Positions 7,184 through 14,339 of a stretch of DNA of 21,878 nt are shown here, one piece after another. Source of the DNA: Acidobacteriota bacterium (lineage in GTDB: Bacteria; Acidobacteriota; UBA4820; DSQY01). Under the pieces are notes generated by a model. It had not been told where the DNA came from. It worked only from the letters and a program-made list of their open reading frames with translations, and made no database searches. Both the position numbers and the translations under genes were made by a program. Within the stretch, counting starts at the first letter, position 1. Each line of letters opens with the position of its first letter. The DNA is taken from NCBI GenBank assembly GCA_049967655.1, contig JBMFSH010000038.1:1-21878 (forward strand), in the 5' to 3' direction.

Positions 7184-8308
7184 ATGCGTTTCGGTGTTCC
7201 CAAGGAATGCGCGATTCAGCCGAACTGTGACGAACGCCGGGTGGGGCTTTCGCCCGCCGGCTGCCGGGATCTGGTGGCCATGGGGGCCGAGCTGTACATC
7301 GAGAGCGGCGCGGGAGTGGCGGCGGGCTTTCTGGACGAGGCCTACCGAAGGGTGGGGGCCCAAGTGGTCTACTCCCGGGAGGAGGTCTTCGGCCGCTCAG
7401 ACATGGTGGTGAAGATCGGGAGGCCCACGATGGAGGACCTGGAGCTCATGTCTTCGGGCTCCGGCATCATGGCCTTCCTCCATTTGGCCCTGGCCGGCGA
7501 CGCCTACACGGCGAAGCTCGCGGAGCGCGGCGTGACGGCCATCGGATACGAAATCATCCAGGAGGGTGATGGGACGCTGCCCGTCCTCAAGATCTCCTCC
7601 GAGATCGCGGGCAAGATGGCCCCCCAGATCGCCGGCAGGCTTCTGGAGACCGGGGCCGGCGGCATGGGCATCCTGCTGGGTGGAGCCCCGGGCATTCCTC
7701 CGGCGGACGTGGTGATCGTGGGAGCCGGAGTGCTGGGCTACCACGCGGCGCGCTCCTTCCTGGGGCTGGGGTGCTCCGTTTACGTCTTGGATATTTCGCA
7801 GATCAAGCTGGAGGCCGTCGACCGCGCCTTCGAGGGGCGGGTGGTGACGGCTCACGCCACGACCGAGAACGTGGAGAAGTTCTCCGCCTTCGCCGAGGTC
7901 CTGGTGGGGGCGGTTCTCGTGCCGGGCGAGATCGCCCCCATCATCGTGACCCGCGAGATGGTCCAGCGCATGCGGCCGGGCAGCGTGATCATCGACTTCT
8001 CCTTCGACCAGGGGGGCTGCGTGGAGACCACGCGCATGCAGGGTCCGGCCGGCGGCGTCTTCGTGCGCGAGGGGGTCCTCCACTTCGCCGTGCCCAACTG
8101 CCCCTCCTACGTGGCGAGGACCTCCACCTACGCCTTGACTTACGCCCTGCTGCCCTTCCTCAAGAGCATGCAGGAGAAGGGAGTCAAGGAGGCGCTCCGG
8201 ACCTGGGCCGACCTGCGCCGCGGCTGTTACGTCTACGAAGGCAACGCGGTGAGCCGCCACGTCACGAGCAGTCCCGCCGACCTGAAGCAACTGCTGGGGG
8301 AGGGCTGA
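7184..8308 (+). CDS. ald: Alanine dehydrogenase family protein (AlaDH/PNT fold), divergent active site
   Basis: Motifs GVPKE..ERRV, FLHLA, SEIAG, GAGVLG, GAVLVPG, DFSFDQGGC.ET and VPN.P; the usual KVKEP reads KIGRP. Confidence 0.85.
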   Translation: MRFGVPKECAIQPNCDERRVGLSPAGCRDLVAMGAELYIESGAGVAAGFLDEAYRRVGAQVVYSREEVFGRSDMVVKIGRPTMEDLELMSSGSGIMAFLHLALAGDAYTAKLAERGVTAIGYEIIQEGDGTLPVLKISSEIAGKMAPQIAGRLLETGAGGMGILLGGAPGIPPADVVIVGAGVLGYHAARSFLGLGCSVYVLDISQIKLEAVDRAFEGRVVTAHATTENVEKFSAFAEVLVGAVLVPGEIAPIIVTREMVQRMRPGSVIIDFSFDQGGCVETTRMQGPAGGVFVREGVLHFAVPNCPSYVARTSTYALTYALLPFLKSMQEKGVKEALRTWADLRRGCYVYEGNAVSRHVTSSPADLKQLLGEG

Positions 8309-8311
8309 GCC

Positions 8312-9607
8312 ATGGCTTGGATCGACGGATACAGGGCGAAGCTCTGTTCGGCCGATGAGGCCGTGTCGCGCATCAAGTCGAACGACTGGGTGTGGCTGAG
8401 CGGCAACGCCGCGGCGCCCTTCTTCCTCATGGAGGCCCTGGCCCGCCGGGCCGGGGAGCTGGAAAACGTCACCCTCTCCCACGTGCTCCTCATGGGCGAG
8501 GACCCCCTCTCCAAGCCGGGCATGGAGAAGGCCTTTCACCACAACTCCCTCTTCGTTGGACCGGCGGACCGACCTTCGGTGAACGACGGGCGCTCCGCCT
8601 ACGTGCCCATCCACCTGCACATGATCCCCAAGGCCATCCGCACCGGGGCCTGCCGGGTTGACGTGGCCATGATCCAGTGTTCGCCTCCCGACGAGCACGG
8701 CTTCATGAGCCTGGGGCTGGAGGTAATGGCCCAGAAGGCTGCTGTGGAGGTGGCCAAGACCGTCATCGTCCAGGTGAACGACCAGATGCCCAGGACGCTC
8801 GGGGACTCCTTCCTCCACGTCTCGAAGGCCGCCCACATCGTGGAGCACAGCTTTCCCCTGCTGGAGCTCCGCGGGAAGGAGGCCACGGAGGTGGAGCGGA
8901 AGATCGGCGCCCTCATCGCCGAGATGATCCCCGATGGCGCGACCCTCCAGATGGGCATCGGCGGCATCCCCGATGCCGTGCTCACGCTCCTGGAGGGCAA
9001 GCGCGACCTGGGAATCCATACGGAGATGATCTCGGACGGGCTGGTGCGGGCCATGGAGCAAGGGATCATCACCGGGAACAAGAAGACCCTGCACCCGGGC
9101 AAGGTGGTGGCCACCTTCATCCTGGGTACGCGGAAGCTCTACGACTTCGTCCACGACAACCCGCTCTTCGAGGTCCACCCCGTGGACCACACCAACGATC
9201 CCTTCATCATCGCCCAGAACGACAACATGGTGGCCATCAACTCGGCCCTGGAGGTGGACCTGACGGGCCAGGTCTGCTCGGACTCCATCGGCACCTACAT
9301 CTACAGCGGCTTCGGGGGGCAGCTGGATTTCATCCGCGGCGCCGCCGCCAGCAAGGGGGGCAAACCCATCATCGCCCTTCCCTCTACTGCCAAGCAGGGC
9401 ACCGTGTCGCGCATCGTGCCCAAGCTCAAGGAGGGGTCGGGCGTGGTCACCACGCGGGCCGACGTCCACACCGTGGTCACGGAGCACGGAGCGGCCAACC
9501 TCTGGGGGAAGAACCTGAACGAGCGCGCCAAGGCCCTCATCGCCATCGCGGACCCCGCCTTCAGGGAGATGCTGGAAAAGGAGGCCAGGGAGCGCCACCT
9601 TATCTAA
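8312..9607 (+). CDS. Acetyl-CoA hydrolase/transferase family (4-hydroxybutyrate CoA-transferase-like)
   Basis: LQMGIGGIP, catalytic Glu in GIHTEM, GFGGQLDF, VVTEHG and LIAIADP.FR; starts 3 nt after the ald stop. Confidence 0.92.
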   Translation: MAWIDGYRAKLCSADEAVSRIKSNDWVWLSGNAAAPFFLMEALARRAGELENVTLSHVLLMGEDPLSKPGMEKAFHHNSLFVGPADRPSVNDGRSAYVPIHLHMIPKAIRTGACRVDVAMIQCSPPDEHGFMSLGLEVMAQKAAVEVAKTVIVQVNDQMPRTLGDSFLHVSKAAHIVEHSFPLLELRGKEATEVERKIGALIAEMIPDGATLQMGIGGIPDAVLTLLEGKRDLGIHTEMISDGLVRAMEQGIITGNKKTLHPGKVVATFILGTRKLYDFVHDNPLFEVHPVDHTNDPFIIAQNDNMVAINSALEVDLTGQVCSDSIGTYIYSGFGGQLDFIRGAAASKGGKPIIALPSTAKQGTVSRIVPKLKEGSGVVTTRADVHTVVTEHGAANLWGKNLNERAKALIAIADPAFREMLEKEARERHLI

Positions 9608-9634
9608 TGGCCACGTGGGATGGGCCCCTGGGAA

Positions 9635-9662
9635 GTGGAGGGTGGAGGGTGAAGGGTGGAGG
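9635..9662 (+). repeat. Four tandem GTGGAGG heptamers (one variant GTGAAGG)
   Basis: Read directly from the intergenic sequence. Confidence 0.8.
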
Positions 9663-9733
9663 TCAGGGAACGGGCCAGCAGAATGTCTGACCGAGGGTAA
9701 GCCAGCAGGGAGACGGCGGCCGTGGGAGGCATC

Positions 9734-9961
9734 ATGCGAGTGGAAATCGAATACTGCGGCGTCTGAAACTACGAGCCGAAGGCCGCCGGTCTGGCGGCCA
9801 AGATCAAGGCGGAGTTCGGCGCGGAGCCCCGGCTCATCCGCTCCTCGGGAGGCGTTTTCGAGGTAACGATAGACGGAGTCCTGGTTCACTCCAAAAAGGC
9901 ATCGGGGCACTTTCCCAATGAGGGCGAATTGATCCGCCGGCTCCGAGAGAGGGTCGGCTGA
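9734..9961 (+). CDS. SelT/SelW/SelH (Rdx) family selenoprotein, 75 aa, Sec at codon 11
   Basis: RBS GGGAGG; translation MRVEIEYCGV-U-NYEPKAAGLAAKIKAEFGAEPRLIRSSGGVFEVTIDGVLVHSKKASGHFPNEGELIRRLRERVG; CxxU, GGVFEV, SK and FP motifs; in-frame TGA at 9764-9766. Confidence 0.93.
9781..9799 (+). promoter_or_regulatory. Bacterial SECIS element
   Basis: GGCCGCC-GGTCT-GGCGGCC hairpin starting 14 nt after the TGA; the apical GGUCU resembles the E. coli fdhF SECIS tip. Confidence 0.82.
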
Positions 9962-9982
9962 GAGGGGTCCGGGAGACCGGCC

Positions 9983-10459
9983 GTGGATATGAACACCGTT
10001 ATCGGAGTTGTGGAGCGCAATGCCGACAAGCTGGCCGCGCGCTGGCTGGAGCGCCTCCGCAAGGAGGCGGGGATGGAGGATTACGCGCGAGAGCCGGCAC
10101 CCCTCCTGCTGGACCACGTCCGCGACGCCTACCAGGAAATCGGCACCTATCTGGACCAGCCGAGGCACCAAGTCATCGCCGAGCACTTCCGGGCCACGGG
10201 AAGGCGCCGGAGGGAGAGGGGGCTGCCGCTGGCCGAGGTGATCAGGGCCGTGCAGCTCGCCCGCACGGTGCTGTGGCAATACGTCATCGAGCAGGGGATC
10301 TTCGATTCCACCGTTAACCTCTACCAGGCCTTGAACCTCTACAGGCAGATCGTGGGTTTCTTCGATCAGGCCGTGCTCTACGCCGTAGAGGGGTACTTCG
10401 AGACGGCGAGCGGAGAACCCGGAAGAACGGATGACGAGGGAAGGGGCGGGGCAGAATAA
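9983..10459 (+). CDS. Stand-alone RsbRD_N/HisK_N-like all-helical (globin-like sensor) domain protein
   Basis: Pattern LAARW..., G..R...G.PL.EV..A....R..LW, ...FFD.A.....GY; GTG start (alternative ATG at 9989). Confidence 0.7.
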   Translation: MDMNTVIGVVERNADKLAARWLERLRKEAGMEDYAREPAPLLLDHVRDAYQEIGTYLDQPRHQVIAEHFRATGRRRRERGLPLAEVIRAVQLARTVLWQYVIEQGIFDSTVNLYQALNLYRQIVGFFDQAVLYAVEGYFETASGEPGRTDDEGRGGAE

Positions 10460-10507: not shown

Positions 10508-11914
10508 TCAGCTCGCCACCGAGGGCAGGTGCGAGAGCGCCTCCTCGATGGCCGCTTCCGGGTAGCCCCCGTTGTTGATCTTGCCGTCGATGAAGGCCTC
10601 GTAGGCCGACAGATCCAGGAGGCCGTGGCCGCTGAGGGAGAACAGGATCGCGGCGGTGCGCCCCTCCTCCTTCAATTGGAGCGCCTTCTTCACCACCGCC
10701 GCCACGGCGTGGCCCGATTCCGGCGCGGGGATGATGCCCTCGGTCCTGGTGAACAGCATGGCGCTCTCGAACACCTCCCGCTGCGGCACCGTCTCCGCCT
10801 TCATGAGGCCCCTCTCCACGAGCGCGCTGACGATGGGCGAGGCTCCGTGGTAGCGCAGCCCCCCGGCATGCACGGCGGGGGGGACGAACCCGTGGCCGAG
10901 GGTGTACATGCGGAGGATGGGCGTGAGGCCCGCCGTATCGCCGAAGTCGTAGGCCATGCGCCCCTTCGTGAGGGTGGGGCAGCTTTCGGGTTCCACGGCA
11001 ACGGCGGTCACGGGCCGCCCCTTCAAGGCCTCCCCCACGAAGGGGAGGGCCAACCCCCCGAAATTGGAGCCGCCGCCGTGACAGCCGTAGACGTAGTCCG
11101 GGTAGTCCTCCACCAGGGCCATCTGTTTTTGCGCCTCCTGTCCGATGACCGTCTGGTGGAGCAGGACGTGGTTCAGCACGCTGCCGAGCGAGTAGTGGGT
11201 GTCCTCCCGGCCCGCCGCCTCCTCCACCGCCTCGCTGATGGCGATGCCCAGGCTGCCGGGAGAGTCGGGATGTTCGGCGAGGATGGCCCGCCCCGAGGCC
11301 GTGAGCGGCGACGGGCTTGCCAGGACCTCGGCGCCGTAGAGGCGCATGAAGGTCTTGCGGTAGGGCTTCTGGTCGAAGCTCACCCGCACCATGTAGACGC
11401 GGCACTGGAGGTCGAAGAGGCGCGAGGCGAAGGCCAGGGCGCTGCCCCACTGACCGGCCCCGGTCTCGGTGGTCAGGCGCTGGATGCCCGAGATCTTGTT
11501 GTAGTAGGCCTGCGGAACCGCCGTGTTGGGCTTGTGGCTTCCCGCGGGCGAGACCCCCTCGTGTTTGAAGTAGATGCGGGCCGGAGTGCCCAGGGCCTTC
11601 TCCAGCCTGCGCGCCCGGATCATGGGAGTGGGGCGCCACATGGCCAGCACATCGAGCACCGGCTCGGGGATGGGAACGAGCCGGTCGTGCCCCATTTCCT
11701 GCTCGATGAGCTGGGGCGGGAAGATCCGCGCCATCTCGTCGAAGGTCACGGGCAGGCCCGTGGCGGGGCTGATGGGCGGGGCCAGCTCGAAGGGAAGGTC
11801 CGCCAGGACGTTGTACCAGTGGGTCGGGATCTCGCGGGTGGGGAGGAGGACGCGGTCCTCTCCCGAGGCCTGGTTGGGTCTTCCTGTTCCGGTCGTCGTG
11901 TCTGCGTGCGCCAT
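10508..11914 (-). CDS. trpB2: Tryptophan synthase beta chain type 2 (TrpB2)
   Basis: PLP-lysine motif GSHKPN, TETGAGQWG, GGGSNF, HAGGLRYHG, PAPES.HA and LSGHG; N-terminal IPTHWYN typical of TrpB2; start at MAHAD after GGAGG. Confidence 0.95.
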   Translation of the reverse strand: MAHADTTTGTGRPNQASGEDRVLLPTREIPTHWYNVLADLPFELAPPISPATGLPVTFDEMARIFPPQLIEQEMGHDRLVPIPEPVLDVLAMWRPTPMIRARRLEKALGTPARIYFKHEGVSPAGSHKPNTAVPQAYYNKISGIQRLTTETGAGQWGSALAFASRLFDLQCRVYMVRVSFDQKPYRKTFMRLYGAEVLASPSPLTASGRAILAEHPDSPGSLGIAISEAVEEAAGREDTHYSLGSVLNHVLLHQTVIGQEAQKQMALVEDYPDYVYGCHGGGSNFGGLALPFVGEALKGRPVTAVAVEPESCPTLTKGRMAYDFGDTAGLTPILRMYTLGHGFVPPAVHAGGLRYHGASPIVSALVERGLMKAETVPQREVFESAMLFTRTEGIIPAPESGHAVAAVVKKALQLKEEGRTAAILFSLSGHGLLDLSAYEAFIDGKINNGGYPEAAIEEALSHLPSVAS

Positions 11915-11941
11915 GGGATCCTCCAATTCTCTTCGGCCAAC

Positions 11942-11969
11942 AAAAAAGCCCTCCGCTTCCGGAGGGCTT
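11942..11969 (-). terminator. Attenuator terminator upstream of trpB2
   Basis: Minus-strand RNA AAGCCCUCCG-GAAG-CGGAGGGCUU-UUUU, ending about 28 nt before the trpB2 start. Confidence 0.9.
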
Positions 11970-12022
11970 CGTACGCGTTCGCTTGGTACGATGAGGCTAC
12001 GGAGCCGCCTCGCGCCCTCCGG
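11959..12022 (-). promoter_or_regulatory. Antiterminator of the trp attenuator
   Basis: Leader segment CCGGAGGGC (12022-12014) is fully complementary to GCCCUCCGG (11967-11959) in the terminator 5' arm. Confidence 0.8.
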
Positions 12023-12089
12023 TTGCGCCGACGCACCACCACCAGCCGAGGATGGAGTTCGTGATCGGGGCTGAACCGAAGGGCATCAT
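11997..12089 (-). CDS. trpL: Trp attenuation leader peptide, 30 aa: MMPFGSAPITNSILGWWWCVGATGGREAAP
   Basis: Three consecutive TGG codons (12044-12036), GGAGG RBS, located between the promoter and the terminator. Confidence 0.88.
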   Translation of the reverse strand: MMPFGSAPITNSILGWWWCVGATGGREAAP

Positions 12090-12113
12090 GGCCTCTGGGC
12101 CTCCAACGCGGGA

Positions 12114-12143
12114 AGGCTACCGCAAGGGGCGGGAGCTTGTCAA
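12114..12143 (-). promoter_or_regulatory. Sigma70-type promoter for trpL-trpB2
   Basis: TTGACA-N18-TAGCCT on the minus strand, just upstream of the leader RBS. Confidence 0.65.
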
Positions 12144-12236
12144 GCAAGGTGCCCCGCCTGGGAAGGAAGAGGGACCATCGGAACGGGGAGAGGCGGATGG
12201 GCCGCCGCGCCAGCCTACCCCCCCCAGCATTCGGCG

Positions 12237-12264
12237 CTCCACCCTCCACCCTCCACCCTTCCAC
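12237..12264 (-). repeat. Tandem GGTGGAG heptamers (three perfect plus one variant)
   Basis: (CTCCACC)x3 followed by CTTCCAC on the + strand; same unit as 9635-9662 in the opposite orientation. Confidence 0.8.
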
Positions 12265-12416
12265 GCCCTTGGGTTCGTTCCTGGAATGAACTAACCTACC
12301 CATACTGCCGGCAGCCCGCCGTGAATGGCCGGCGGGGAATGGGGAGAGGCTCCGGGCCGTTGATGCCGTGATGAGTGATAAGGGTGAAGGCTCGGCATGA
12401 AGACGCAGGAGTAGGC

Positions 12417-14339
12417 ATGGCCGGTGGAGAAGTACCCGAGACGCGGAAATCCCTCTCCGAGGTGCACGGCAGCGTCCGCGTGCCGTGGACCGGCAACCTG
12501 CTGCGCCGCATCTTCGCCGTGGCCGGGCCGGCCTACCTCGTCAGCGTGGGCTACATGGACCCCGGGAACTGGGCCACGGACCTGGCCGCCGGGGCCCACT
12601 ACAACTATGCCCTGATCTGGGTGCTCCTGATGTCCAACCTCATGGCCGTGCTGTTGCAAGCCCTGGCGGCACGGCTCGGCGTGGTGCGCGGCCTGGACCT
12701 GGCCCAGGCCTGCCGAAGGGAGTATTCGCGTCCCGTGAACGCGGCCCTGTACGTGCTCTGTGAAATAGCCATCACCGCCTGCGACCTGGCGGAGGTCATC
12801 GGCTCGGCCATCGCCCTGCAGCTCCTCTTCGGTCTGCCCATGGTGTGGGGCGTGCTGATCACGGGGGCCGACACCTTCGCGCTCCTCTTCCTGAGCCACC
12901 TTGGGATCCGGAAGATGGAGGCCTTGATCCTCGGCCTCATCACGGTTGTCGGCACCGGCTTTCTCGTCGAGATCCTGCTGGCCAAGCCCGAGTGGGGCGG
13001 CGTGGCAATGGGATTCTTCCCGATCCTGCCCGACAAGGCGGCCCTCTTCGTCGCCATCGGCATGCTGGGGGCAACGGTCATGCCCCACAACCTCTACCTC
13101 CACAGCTCCCTGGTCCAGAGCAGGACCATCGGGGACACCCTGAAGGAGAAGTGGCAGGCCATCAAGCTCAATACGCTGGATTCCGCGGTGGCTCTGAATA
13201 TGGCTTTCTTCGTGAACGCCGCCATCCTCATCATGGCGGCGGCCGTCTTCTACCGCTCGGGGCACCGGGAGGTGGCGGAGATCCGGGACGCCTACCGCTT
13301 GCTGGAACCCATCCTCGGCATGGCGGTAGCACCCGTCGCCTTTGCGGTGGCCCTTCTGGCCTCCGGCCAGAGCTCCACCATCACGGGCACCCTGGCGGGC
13401 CAGATCGTGATGGAGGGTTTTCTCAACATCCGCATCGCGCCCTGGCTGCGGCGCCTCATCACTCGACTGCTGGCCATCGTCCCCGCGGTCCTGACGCTCA
13501 TCTACTTCGGCGAGCGGGGCACGGGCCCCCTCCTGGTCCTTTCTCAGGTCGTCCTTTCCCTTCAGCTCCCCTTCGCCATCATCCCGCTCGTGCACTTCGT
13601 CTCCGACAGGAAGCAGATGGGCGAGCTAGCCATCGGCCGGCCTACGAAGGTCCTGGCGTGGATCACCGCCTCCGTCGTGGTCGTTCTGAACGCCAAGCTG
13701 GTATCCGACTGGCTCGCGGAGTGGACCCACGCCGCGGGAGACCGGGCTTTCTGGATCCTTCTGGTGGCCGTCCCGCTCAACCTGGCCGTCGGCGGTCTTT
13801 TGCTGTACGTTACGATTAAGCCCTGGTTAGGGGGTCTGGCACGGCGCGCGCCAGCGGCCCCGCGGCTGGGAGTGCACGCTCCCTCGGAGGGGCTGGACCT
13901 GGAGATGGCCGCCAGTCCGTACAAGAAGATCGCGGTTGCCCTGGACTTCTCGGGCCGGGACGGAGCGATCCTGAAGGAGACCCTAAAGATGGCCGGCGAC
14001 GGTCGTCCAGAGCTGGCGCTCATGCACGTCGTCGAGAGCGCCGGCGCTCGTTTCCTGGGAAAGGACTCGGCGGACGAGGAGAGCCAGCAGGACGCCGCGC
14101 GCCTGGAGGGCTACGCCGAGGCGCTGAGAGCGAAGGGCTTCAACGTCGCGACGAAGCTCGGCAGGGGCAAGCCGGTGCCCGTGCTGGCGGCCATGATCGA
14201 GGAGTTCGGCCCCGACCTGGTGGTTCTGGGTGCCCACGGCCACCGCTTCTTGCTCGACCTCTTCTTCGGCTCCACCGCCGACGCGCTCCGCCACCGCATC
14301 AGGGCCAGCGTCCTTGTGGTCGGGAAAGGACGACCCTAG
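12417..14339 (+). CDS. mntH: Nramp family Mn2+/Fe2+ transporter with a C-terminal universal stress protein (USP) domain
   Basis: DPGN and MPHNLYLHS metal-site motifs, GQSSTITGT; USP motifs from about 13920 (KIAVALDFS, LMHVVE, DLVVLGAHGH, FGST); start moved to the ATG after AGGAG. Confidence 0.93.
   Translation: MAGGEVPETRKSLSEVHGSVRVPWTGNLLRRIFAVAGPAYLVSVGYMDPGNWATDLAAGAHYNYALIWVLLMSNLMAVLLQALAARLGVVRGLDLAQACRREYSRPVNAALYVLCEIAITACDLAEVIGSAIALQLLFGLPMVWGVLITGADTFALLFLSHLGIRKMEALILGLITVVGTGFLVEILLAKPEWGGVAMGFFPILPDKAALFVAIGMLGATVMPHNLYLHSSLVQSRTIGDTLKEKWQAIKLNTLDSAVALNMAFFVNAAILIMAAAVFYRSGHREVAEIRDAYRLLEPILGMAVAPVAFAVALLASGQSSTITGTLAGQIVMEGFLNIRIAPWLRRLITRLLAIVPAVLTLIYFGERGTGPLLVLSQVVLSLQLPFAIIPLVHFVSDRKQMGELAIGRPTKVLAWITASVVVVLNAKLVSDWLAEWTHAAGDRAFWILLVAVPLNLAVGGLLLYVTIKPWLGGLARRAPAAPRLGVHAPSEGLDLEMAASPYKKIAVALDFSGRDGAILKETLKMAGDGRPELALMHVVESAGARFLGKDSADEESQQDAARLEGYAEALRAKGFNVATKLGRGKPVPVLAAMIEEFGPDLVVLGAHGHRFLLDLFFGSTADALRHRIRASVLVVGKGRP

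Follow-up and report, generated by a model that had tools for sequence, protein, structure and literature searches.

The stand-alone trpB2 gene of this Acidobacteriota genome raises the question of which signal sets its expression, and of what that signal says about a TrpB paralogue whose role has been argued over, with indole salvage, serine deamination or a second function set out in the discussion of PMC1854888. Within the window, by which we mean the whole 21,878-nt stretch of DNA analysed, an earlier note had read positions 11942-12143, just upstream of the gene, as a Trp attenuator. We come to the same view: the element is very probably a ribosome-mediated Trp attenuator that admits the polymerase into trpB2 only when charged tRNA-Trp is scarce.

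The controlled gene (10508-11914, minus strand, with a GGAGG Shine-Dalgarno sequence at 11924-11920) encodes a stand-alone tryptophan synthase beta chain 2 of 468 aa. Its product scores 639.5 bits with TIGR01415 (cut-off 518.85) and 154.7 bits with TIGR00263, the trpB1 model (cut-off 392.45), in agreement with the earlier assignment to TrpB2. The best PDB matches are 6HUL_B, 4QYS and 6HTE, and the closest named protein relatives, at 95-96% identity, come from two Acidobacteriota MAGs (L065, L066). By layout trpB2 is monocistronic, with mntH divergent on one side and an ORF convergent on the other, and it sits outside the trp operon (the TrpB2_o type), apart from a complete operon that contains trpB1. 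On the plus strand, the neighbour at 12375-14339 encodes an NRAMP/MntH transporter whose C-terminal extension resembles, by eye, a universal-stress-protein domain; 7184-10459 carries alanine-dehydrogenase-like and acyl-CoA transferase genes, both below NCBIfam cut-offs, and ends in the convergent ORF of 158 aa, for which no NCBIfam match was found.

All the elements that had been named upstream of trpB2 are borne out at their coordinates on the minus strand. A predicted sigma70-like promoter, TTGACA-N18-TAGCCT, spans 12143-12114 (TTGACA box 12143-12138, spacer 18 nt, TAGCCT box 12119-12114). A consensus promoter scan returned no site, missing this one because its weak -10 box agrees at 3/6 positions only; in 13/13 homologous leaders with enough sequence TTGAC is kept, 88-116 nt ahead of the last Trp codon, and the leader promoter of one relative (G028) reads TTGACA-17-TATAAT. 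Shine-Dalgarno-like sequences GGAGG (12104-12100) and AGAGG (12096-12092) would serve the ATG ATG of the leader, either of which may be the start of a trpL-like ORF of 30 codons (12089-11997) with the product MMPFGSAPITNSILGWWWCVGATGGREAAP. GGAG likewise stands 5-8 nt ahead of the leader ATG in G018, G022, G014, G010, G024 and G028. The sensor is a run of three tandem Trp codons, TGG TGG TGG (12044-12036). Farther along the ORF, within codons 23-26, lies segment 2 (CCGGAGGGC, 12022-12014), the predicted 5' strand of an antiterminator; these 9 nt are complementary to segment 3 (GCCCTCCGG, 11967-11959), the 5' arm of the terminator, which is followed by segment 4 (CGGAGGGC, 11955-11948). Segments 3 and 4 and a U6 tract (11947-11942, 28 nt upstream of the trpB2 ATG at 11914) make up a GC-rich intrinsic terminator at 11970-11942, with a hairpin of 11 pairs at 11970-11945. 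Between segments 2 and 3 are inner hairpin A, GAGGC/GCCTC (RNA GAGGC/GCCUC, 12011-12007/11997-11993), which encloses the stop codon, and inner hairpin B, TCGTAC/GTACGA (RNA UCGUAC/GUACGA, 11991-11986/11974-11969). The folding z of the leader is -2.8. In three metatranscriptome contig sets we found short pieces inside trpB2 only, the leader being uncovered, a result that speaks neither for nor against the switch.

The class was surveyed in 30 genomes, 14 of which had a trpB2 start. A complete leader precedes 12 of these 14 trpB2 loci; in G006 a contig end cuts the leader and the terminator is retained, and in G023 (64% complete) trpB2 has no leader. The same element recurs in G237 and G264, genomes of another family. 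Alignment and spacing were based on 14 complete genome leaders, related genomes not counting as independent observations. In all 14 the antiterminator core GGAGGG (GGGGGG in G022) starts exactly 15 nt past the last Trp codon, and in 12 of them 13 codons lead from that codon to the stop. The homologue set comprises 36 distinct leaders (41 minus 5 duplicates): at least three Trp fall within five codons in 35/36, all 36 have a start in frame and reach their stop 15-24 nt past segment 2, and the stop codon also lies within a predicted inner helix of varying sequence in 36/36, a count taken without a shuffle control. The leader ORF is about 26-37 codons long; at its N-terminus the peptide varies from homologue to homologue, and past the Trp run a GG(R) end, with Cys or Tyr, recurs. 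The frame of the Trp run, the start, the stop and the 15-nt spacing are kept across genera, including at 39% GC. The conservation of Trp codons in homologous leaders, on which the earlier note had let its reading hang, is thus found, together with that of frame, spacing, antiterminator and terminator. Those TrpB2 proteins that are full-length and whose genes carry this leader, 30 in all, form one clade (127-sequence FastTree, support 0.999, midpoint root). The trpB2 of G028 (L015, L280) runs in two reading frames around L015:680 and is divided between two contigs, through a frameshift or an assembly error.

Covarying stems, which were also expected, are evident for the terminator but not clearly for the antiterminator. 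In the 14-leader alignment 98.6% of terminator cells are paired, two pairs have double-sided changes, and the covariation score was reached by 0/500 shuffles. Segments 2 and 3 pair in 96% of cells, and one double-sided and six one-sided changes preserve the pairing; 178/500 shuffles equal the percentage paired and 31/500 the covariation score. This weak signal is due to the near invariance of the antiterminator core. Individual changes run through all the segments concerned: in G028 one position is altered jointly in segments 2, 3 and 4 (C/G/C to G/C/G), and in G022 an A-to-G change is found in both segments 2 and 4, with G-U pairs kept.

A gene-blind DNA pattern, which required two tandem TGG and neither a third Trp codon nor a start or stop, gave 54 matches in metagenomes, of which 27 were CRISPR repeats and were removed before counting. 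The other 27, with a U tail, lie upstream of trpB2 in 26 cases and of a trpB2 stub in one. In the CRISPR matches (L225, L226, L229-L231 and others) the repeat shares a GCCCTCC/GGAGGGC stem with the terminator, probably by coincidence. In the stub case (L244:1251-1336, minus strand) the same leader stands ahead of a 46-residue trpB2 remnant followed by a DAHP synthase gene, which suggests that a deletion placed the attenuator in front of a new gene.

Could such a combination arise by chance? The whole genome has 35 small ORFs with three tandem Trp codons and 8 small ORFs with two that have a terminator-like hairpin within 100 nt, another of the 8 being the trpE leader; the triple run joined to a terminator occurs in this leader only. 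Upstream of 85 Acidobacteriota trpB2 loci, a small ORF with tandem Trp codons is present at 36 in the sense direction, at none in antisense and at a mean of 0.7 (maximum 2) in shuffled sequence, 49/85 loci having none under the filter used.

The leader has the features of a classical attenuator, namely an ORF with a ribosome-binding site, conserved tandem Trp codons, a terminator and a predicted antiterminator exclusive with it. To see how these would operate as a switch, folding at equilibrium is of no help, because the 3:4 helix always wins (in the full leader its probability is 1.00 even with a stalled ribosome) and segments 1 and 2 may pair across the blocked stretch. We therefore used a footprint model in which -15 to +12 nt around the A site are blocked and pairing across the ribosome is, by assumption, forbidden; once such pairing is permitted, 1:2 prevails in several cases, one of them being the window when the ribosome occupies the first Trp codon. 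Under the model a stall at the Trp run would leave segment 2 free, as the earlier note had anticipated: a ribosome placed on the last Trp codon gives a predicted probability of 2:3 of at least 0.99 in 14/14 leaders, and in the window it is 1.00 on any of the three. With footprint edges of 9, 12 or 15 nt, the predicted value in the window has dropped to 0 by the time the A site has moved 3-5 codons beyond the run.

Two parts of the original picture have to be modified. The stalled state had been drawn as a three-way junction; both inner hairpins are in place, but the junction appears in 10/14 predicted folds of that state only and the hairpin B sequence is confined to the genus, so the junction is not a defining feature. 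Furthermore, a ribosome reaching the stop at 11997 had been expected to disrupt segment 2. Termination is indeed predicted in that position, but not through direct masking, as the footprint reaches a single nucleotide of the 9 in segment 2. The earlier list of helices had missed one beside the start codon, in which segment 1 (12085-12074), the predicted anti-antiterminator or protector strand, pairs with 12024-12013. This 1:2 helix belongs to the minimum-free-energy fold of the naked leader, with a probability of 1.00 in the naked RNA and of 0.99 upstream of a ribosome that has reached the stop. Against shuffles the duplex reaches p = 0.005 in the window and p <= 0.05 in 13/36 homologues, and it lies above the shuffle mean in 30/36. 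The terminator state is the more stable one in every leader (-38.2 versus -34.3 kcal/mol in the window), from which it follows that readthrough would depend on folding order, that is, on kinetic control.

The probable course of events would then be as follows. When Trp is short, a ribosome would stall on any of the three Trp codons and segment 2 would stay free, so that the 2:3 antiterminator could form before segment 4 is made and trpB2 would be transcribed. When Trp is ample, the ribosome would pass over segment 2 and sit on the junction at the stop codon; segment 2 would re-pair with segment 1, the 3:4 helix would form and transcription would stop near 11942. Termination is also expected when the leader goes untranslated. 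TrpB2 would in this way be made under Trp shortage and condense free indole into Trp; this indole may have leaked from TrpA, have been released earlier by the cell's own tryptophanase-family enzyme, or come from neighbours. With trpB2 off at ample Trp, a futile cycle with the tryptophanase-family enzyme would be avoided.

The remainder of the genome, which is 99.3% complete, bears on both the regulation and the physiology. No match to TrpR or TRAP (trpR, mtrB) was found in this 99%-complete genome, and control by either was rejected on this basis; a T-box riboswitch was likewise rejected, Rfam giving no T-box match at E <= 10 across 11700-12500. The earlier remark that there is no trpA is true of the window, but not of the genome, where trpA, trpB1 and trpE are all present in a complete operon, trpE-G-D-C-F-B1-A-aroF (aroF being the DAHP synthase gene), on contig C10. 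Because of this operon indole need not come from outside, and the view that it is probably scavenged loses its necessity. The operon is preceded by a promoter-like site, a leader with two tandem Trp codons and a U7 terminator of its own; this unannotated leader (L003, about 10903-10716, minus strand; G000:C10) has predicted 1:2, 2:3 and 3:4 helices. A similar attenuator stands upstream of trpE at 19/21 loci of the family, the remaining 2 being without upstream DNA. The genome also has trpS, whose upstream region gave no match in the genome-wide scan for small Trp ORFs with a terminator-like hairpin. A tryptophanase-family gene scores 652 bits with NF009709, above the subfamily cut-off and below the equivalog cut-offs of both TnaA and TPL; its RHFTA motif presumably points to tryptophanase. 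Such a gene was found in 29/30 genomes of the class.

Does TrpB2, then, recapture free indole, or does it take part in de novo synthesis? The second possibility, in which the attenuator is real and TrpB2 is mainly a second or backup beta subunit using indole from the operon's TrpA, concerns physiology only and is compatible with the mechanism described above; we consider it a minority reading. The genome does have trpA and trpB1, and the trpE and trpB2 leaders are predicted to answer the same signal. Moreover, G005 and G013 (97-98% complete) have the operon trpE-G-D-C-F-A-aroF, and since trpB1 is absent from it and from elsewhere in these genomes, no beta subunit other than the leader-controlled TrpB2 was found there. 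Judging from gene content, their de novo synthesis of Trp would depend entirely on TrpB2; the TrpA of their trp operons (L278, L279) is divergent, with 37-39% identity to that of the window genome. G028 argues against it: this genome (88% complete) keeps the leader and trpB2, and trpA, trpE and trpB1 were not found there; its family has trpA in 0/4 genomes and trpE in 0/4. The stand-alone TrpB2 of Thermotoga maritima, which does not associate with TrpA according to the account in PMC1854888, also tells against a backup role. As to a Trp role of TrpB2 in general, trpA was not found in 8/10 selected other Acidobacteriota genomes with tandem-Trp leaders, 7 of these being at least 91% complete. 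Taken as a whole, the lone TrpB2 of G005 and G013, the genomes in which trpA was not found, the 36/85 loci with a tandem-Trp ORF and the near-universal tryptophanase-family gene of the class would fit the formation of Trp from free indole when Trp is short.

In biochemical terms, the production of Trp from indole by TrpB2 is already favoured: the enzyme is described as making Trp from indole and O-phospho-L-serine, with a very low KM for indole, in the sections of PMC11535334 and PMC11917138 that deal with it. The Trp leader supports the view, at the level of the genome, that TrpB2 serves Trp supply from free indole, and the conserved Trp-codon sensor is direct evidence from the genome that TrpB2 is handled by the cell as a component of its Trp supply.

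Two further explanations would touch the mechanism of the attenuator itself. It is very unlikely that the decisive agent is the peptide encoded by the leader, its RNA once released or some protein factor, whether through a tnaC-like arrest or in a trans role like that of rnTrpL/peTrpL. The logic of tnaC is the opposite of being on when starved, and on when starved is what the helices here imply; the N-terminal peptide, moreover, varies, and a gene for TrpR or TRAP is not found. The length of the leader ORF and the recurrent GG(R) end with Cys or Tyr would favour an active peptide, but the RNA sequence of segment 2 accounts for the conserved GG(R), and also for the GGA-to-GGG change in G022. 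Trans roles have been published for the Sinorhizobium meliloti trpL in the reports PMC6614838 and PMC7298713. That the element is merely a constitutive premature terminator or a small-RNA gene with an incidental Trp run, as TGG repeats in DNA of 66% GC and a terminator that is the most stable state might suggest, is hardly credible given the reading frame and spacing kept across genera and in AT-richer leaders, the 36/85 sense against 0/85 antisense ORFs, and an occurrence upstream of trpB2 almost without exception.

Trp leaders of other kinds precede trpB2 elsewhere. In other Acidobacteriota we observed a second type, in which two tandem Trp codons overlap a GGGCGG...CCGCCC hairpin and the stop comes immediately after, followed by a C/U-rich tract and no intrinsic terminator (L163, L165, L168, L181, L186, L190, L194, L196, L199-L204, L206, L208, L210, L215, L216). 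This type may be Rho-dependent, and trpA was not found in the 6 genomes with it that were tested. In G202 and G333 the same setting contains WRW. The Ignavibacteriales and FCB-group MAG loci L075 and L083 have leaders with three tandem Trp codons and a different triple, with a distance of 13 nt, common to both, to a predicted antiterminator of 10-12 bp; in the tree their TrpB2 proteins branch as near sisters to the clade that holds the window protein. Further leader ORFs with two or three tandem Trp codons before trpB2, mostly candidates, were seen at L074, L080, L094, L097, L108, L115, L123, L158 and L213, in Thermodesulfobacteriota, Marinimicrobia, 'Proteobacteria', Bacteroidetes and other Acidobacteriota, at scattered positions in the tree. 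We did not accept the TGGTGG runs at L120 and L140 as leaders, and L129 was left out, its upstream DNA being too short.

A broader reading, to which we would give an even chance, takes these cases together. Trp-codon leaders would have been set on stand-alone trpB2 repeatedly and in differing designs, at seven separate positions of the 127-sequence TrpB2 tree, one design being terminator-less, possibly Rho-dependent and found in trpA-less Acidobacteriota. This would amount to a comparative-genomic demonstration of TrpB2 as a Trp-starvation enzyme that recaptures indole and, in the class, of a regulated Trp-indole cycle with the near-universal tryptophanase-family enzyme.

How does the element compare with known systems? 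The mechanism is a textbook one; what is new is the target, a stand-alone trpB2, and the lineage, Acidobacteriota, in a leader family that has no Rfam model and acts on a TrpB paralogue of disputed physiological role. In Rfam no leader family matched at its gathering threshold, the best being Phe_leader with 27 bits against 55, on the terminator only; Trp_leader gave no match at E <= 10 at the window leader, and none of the leader families was found in 20 related loci. In the open literature, to which our search was confined, we found no description of a leader peptide on a gene of the TrpB2 class.

The enterobacterial trpL (Rfam Trp_leader) has an ORF containing tandem Trp codons, 1:2, 2:3 and 3:4 helices that exclude one another and a terminator ending in a U tail, and it goes together with TrpR and with trpE as the target. 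The present leader shares the tandem-Trp ORF, the exclusive helices and the U-tailed terminator before a Trp gene. It differs in that no TrpR was found and the target is a lone trpB2 rather than trpE; that segment 2 is inside the 30-codon ORF, 15 nt past the Trp run; that segment 1 is beside the start codon; and that the stop codon lies within the inner hairpin of the antiterminator.

As in the trp attenuators of Corynebacterium and Streptomyces presented in PMC1262725, double or triple UGG codons are followed by a GC-rich poly-U terminator, and antiterminator and terminator share a conserved triple of complementary sequences. The actinobacterial triple is given there as gGCC-rGCy-GGCC (PMC1262725). 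Here it is instead GGAGGGC / GCCCUCC / GGAGGGC. We take the 'trpB2' of Corynebacterium diphtheriae to be a numbered TrpB1-type paralogue. It appears in the text of PMC1262725 as 'trpB2A', an operon with trpA.

A precedent for a predicted sensor of uncharged tRNA-Trp on a TrpB paralogue apart from trpE is the T-box upstream of a 'trpB-like' gene in Dehalococcoides, as listed in PMC2494555. The sensor is a T-box riboswitch there and a translated leader here; in the single Dehalococcoidia locus that we scanned (L082) no T-box was found. With this precedent and the biochemistry that already favours Trp from indole, the increment made here is moderate. The gene itself resembles the stand-alone TrpB2_o of the 'i1_o2' species treated in PMC1854888, being of the TIGR01415 class and outside the operon that contains trpB1. 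The passages on stand-alone TrpB2 in PMC1854888 and, for the enzymes of T. maritima and Bacteroides thetaiotaomicron, in PMC11535334 name no regulatory element of the gene.

A parallel in design comes from the trpE leader of the same genome and family, taken here at about 10853-10716 of L003 (minus strand), which likewise has tandem Trp codons, a stop inside an inner hairpin, predicted 1:2, 2:3 and 3:4 helices and a U tail, U7 in its case. The two differ in the sequence of the triple, and in the trpE leader the antiterminator strand begins nearer the Trp codons.
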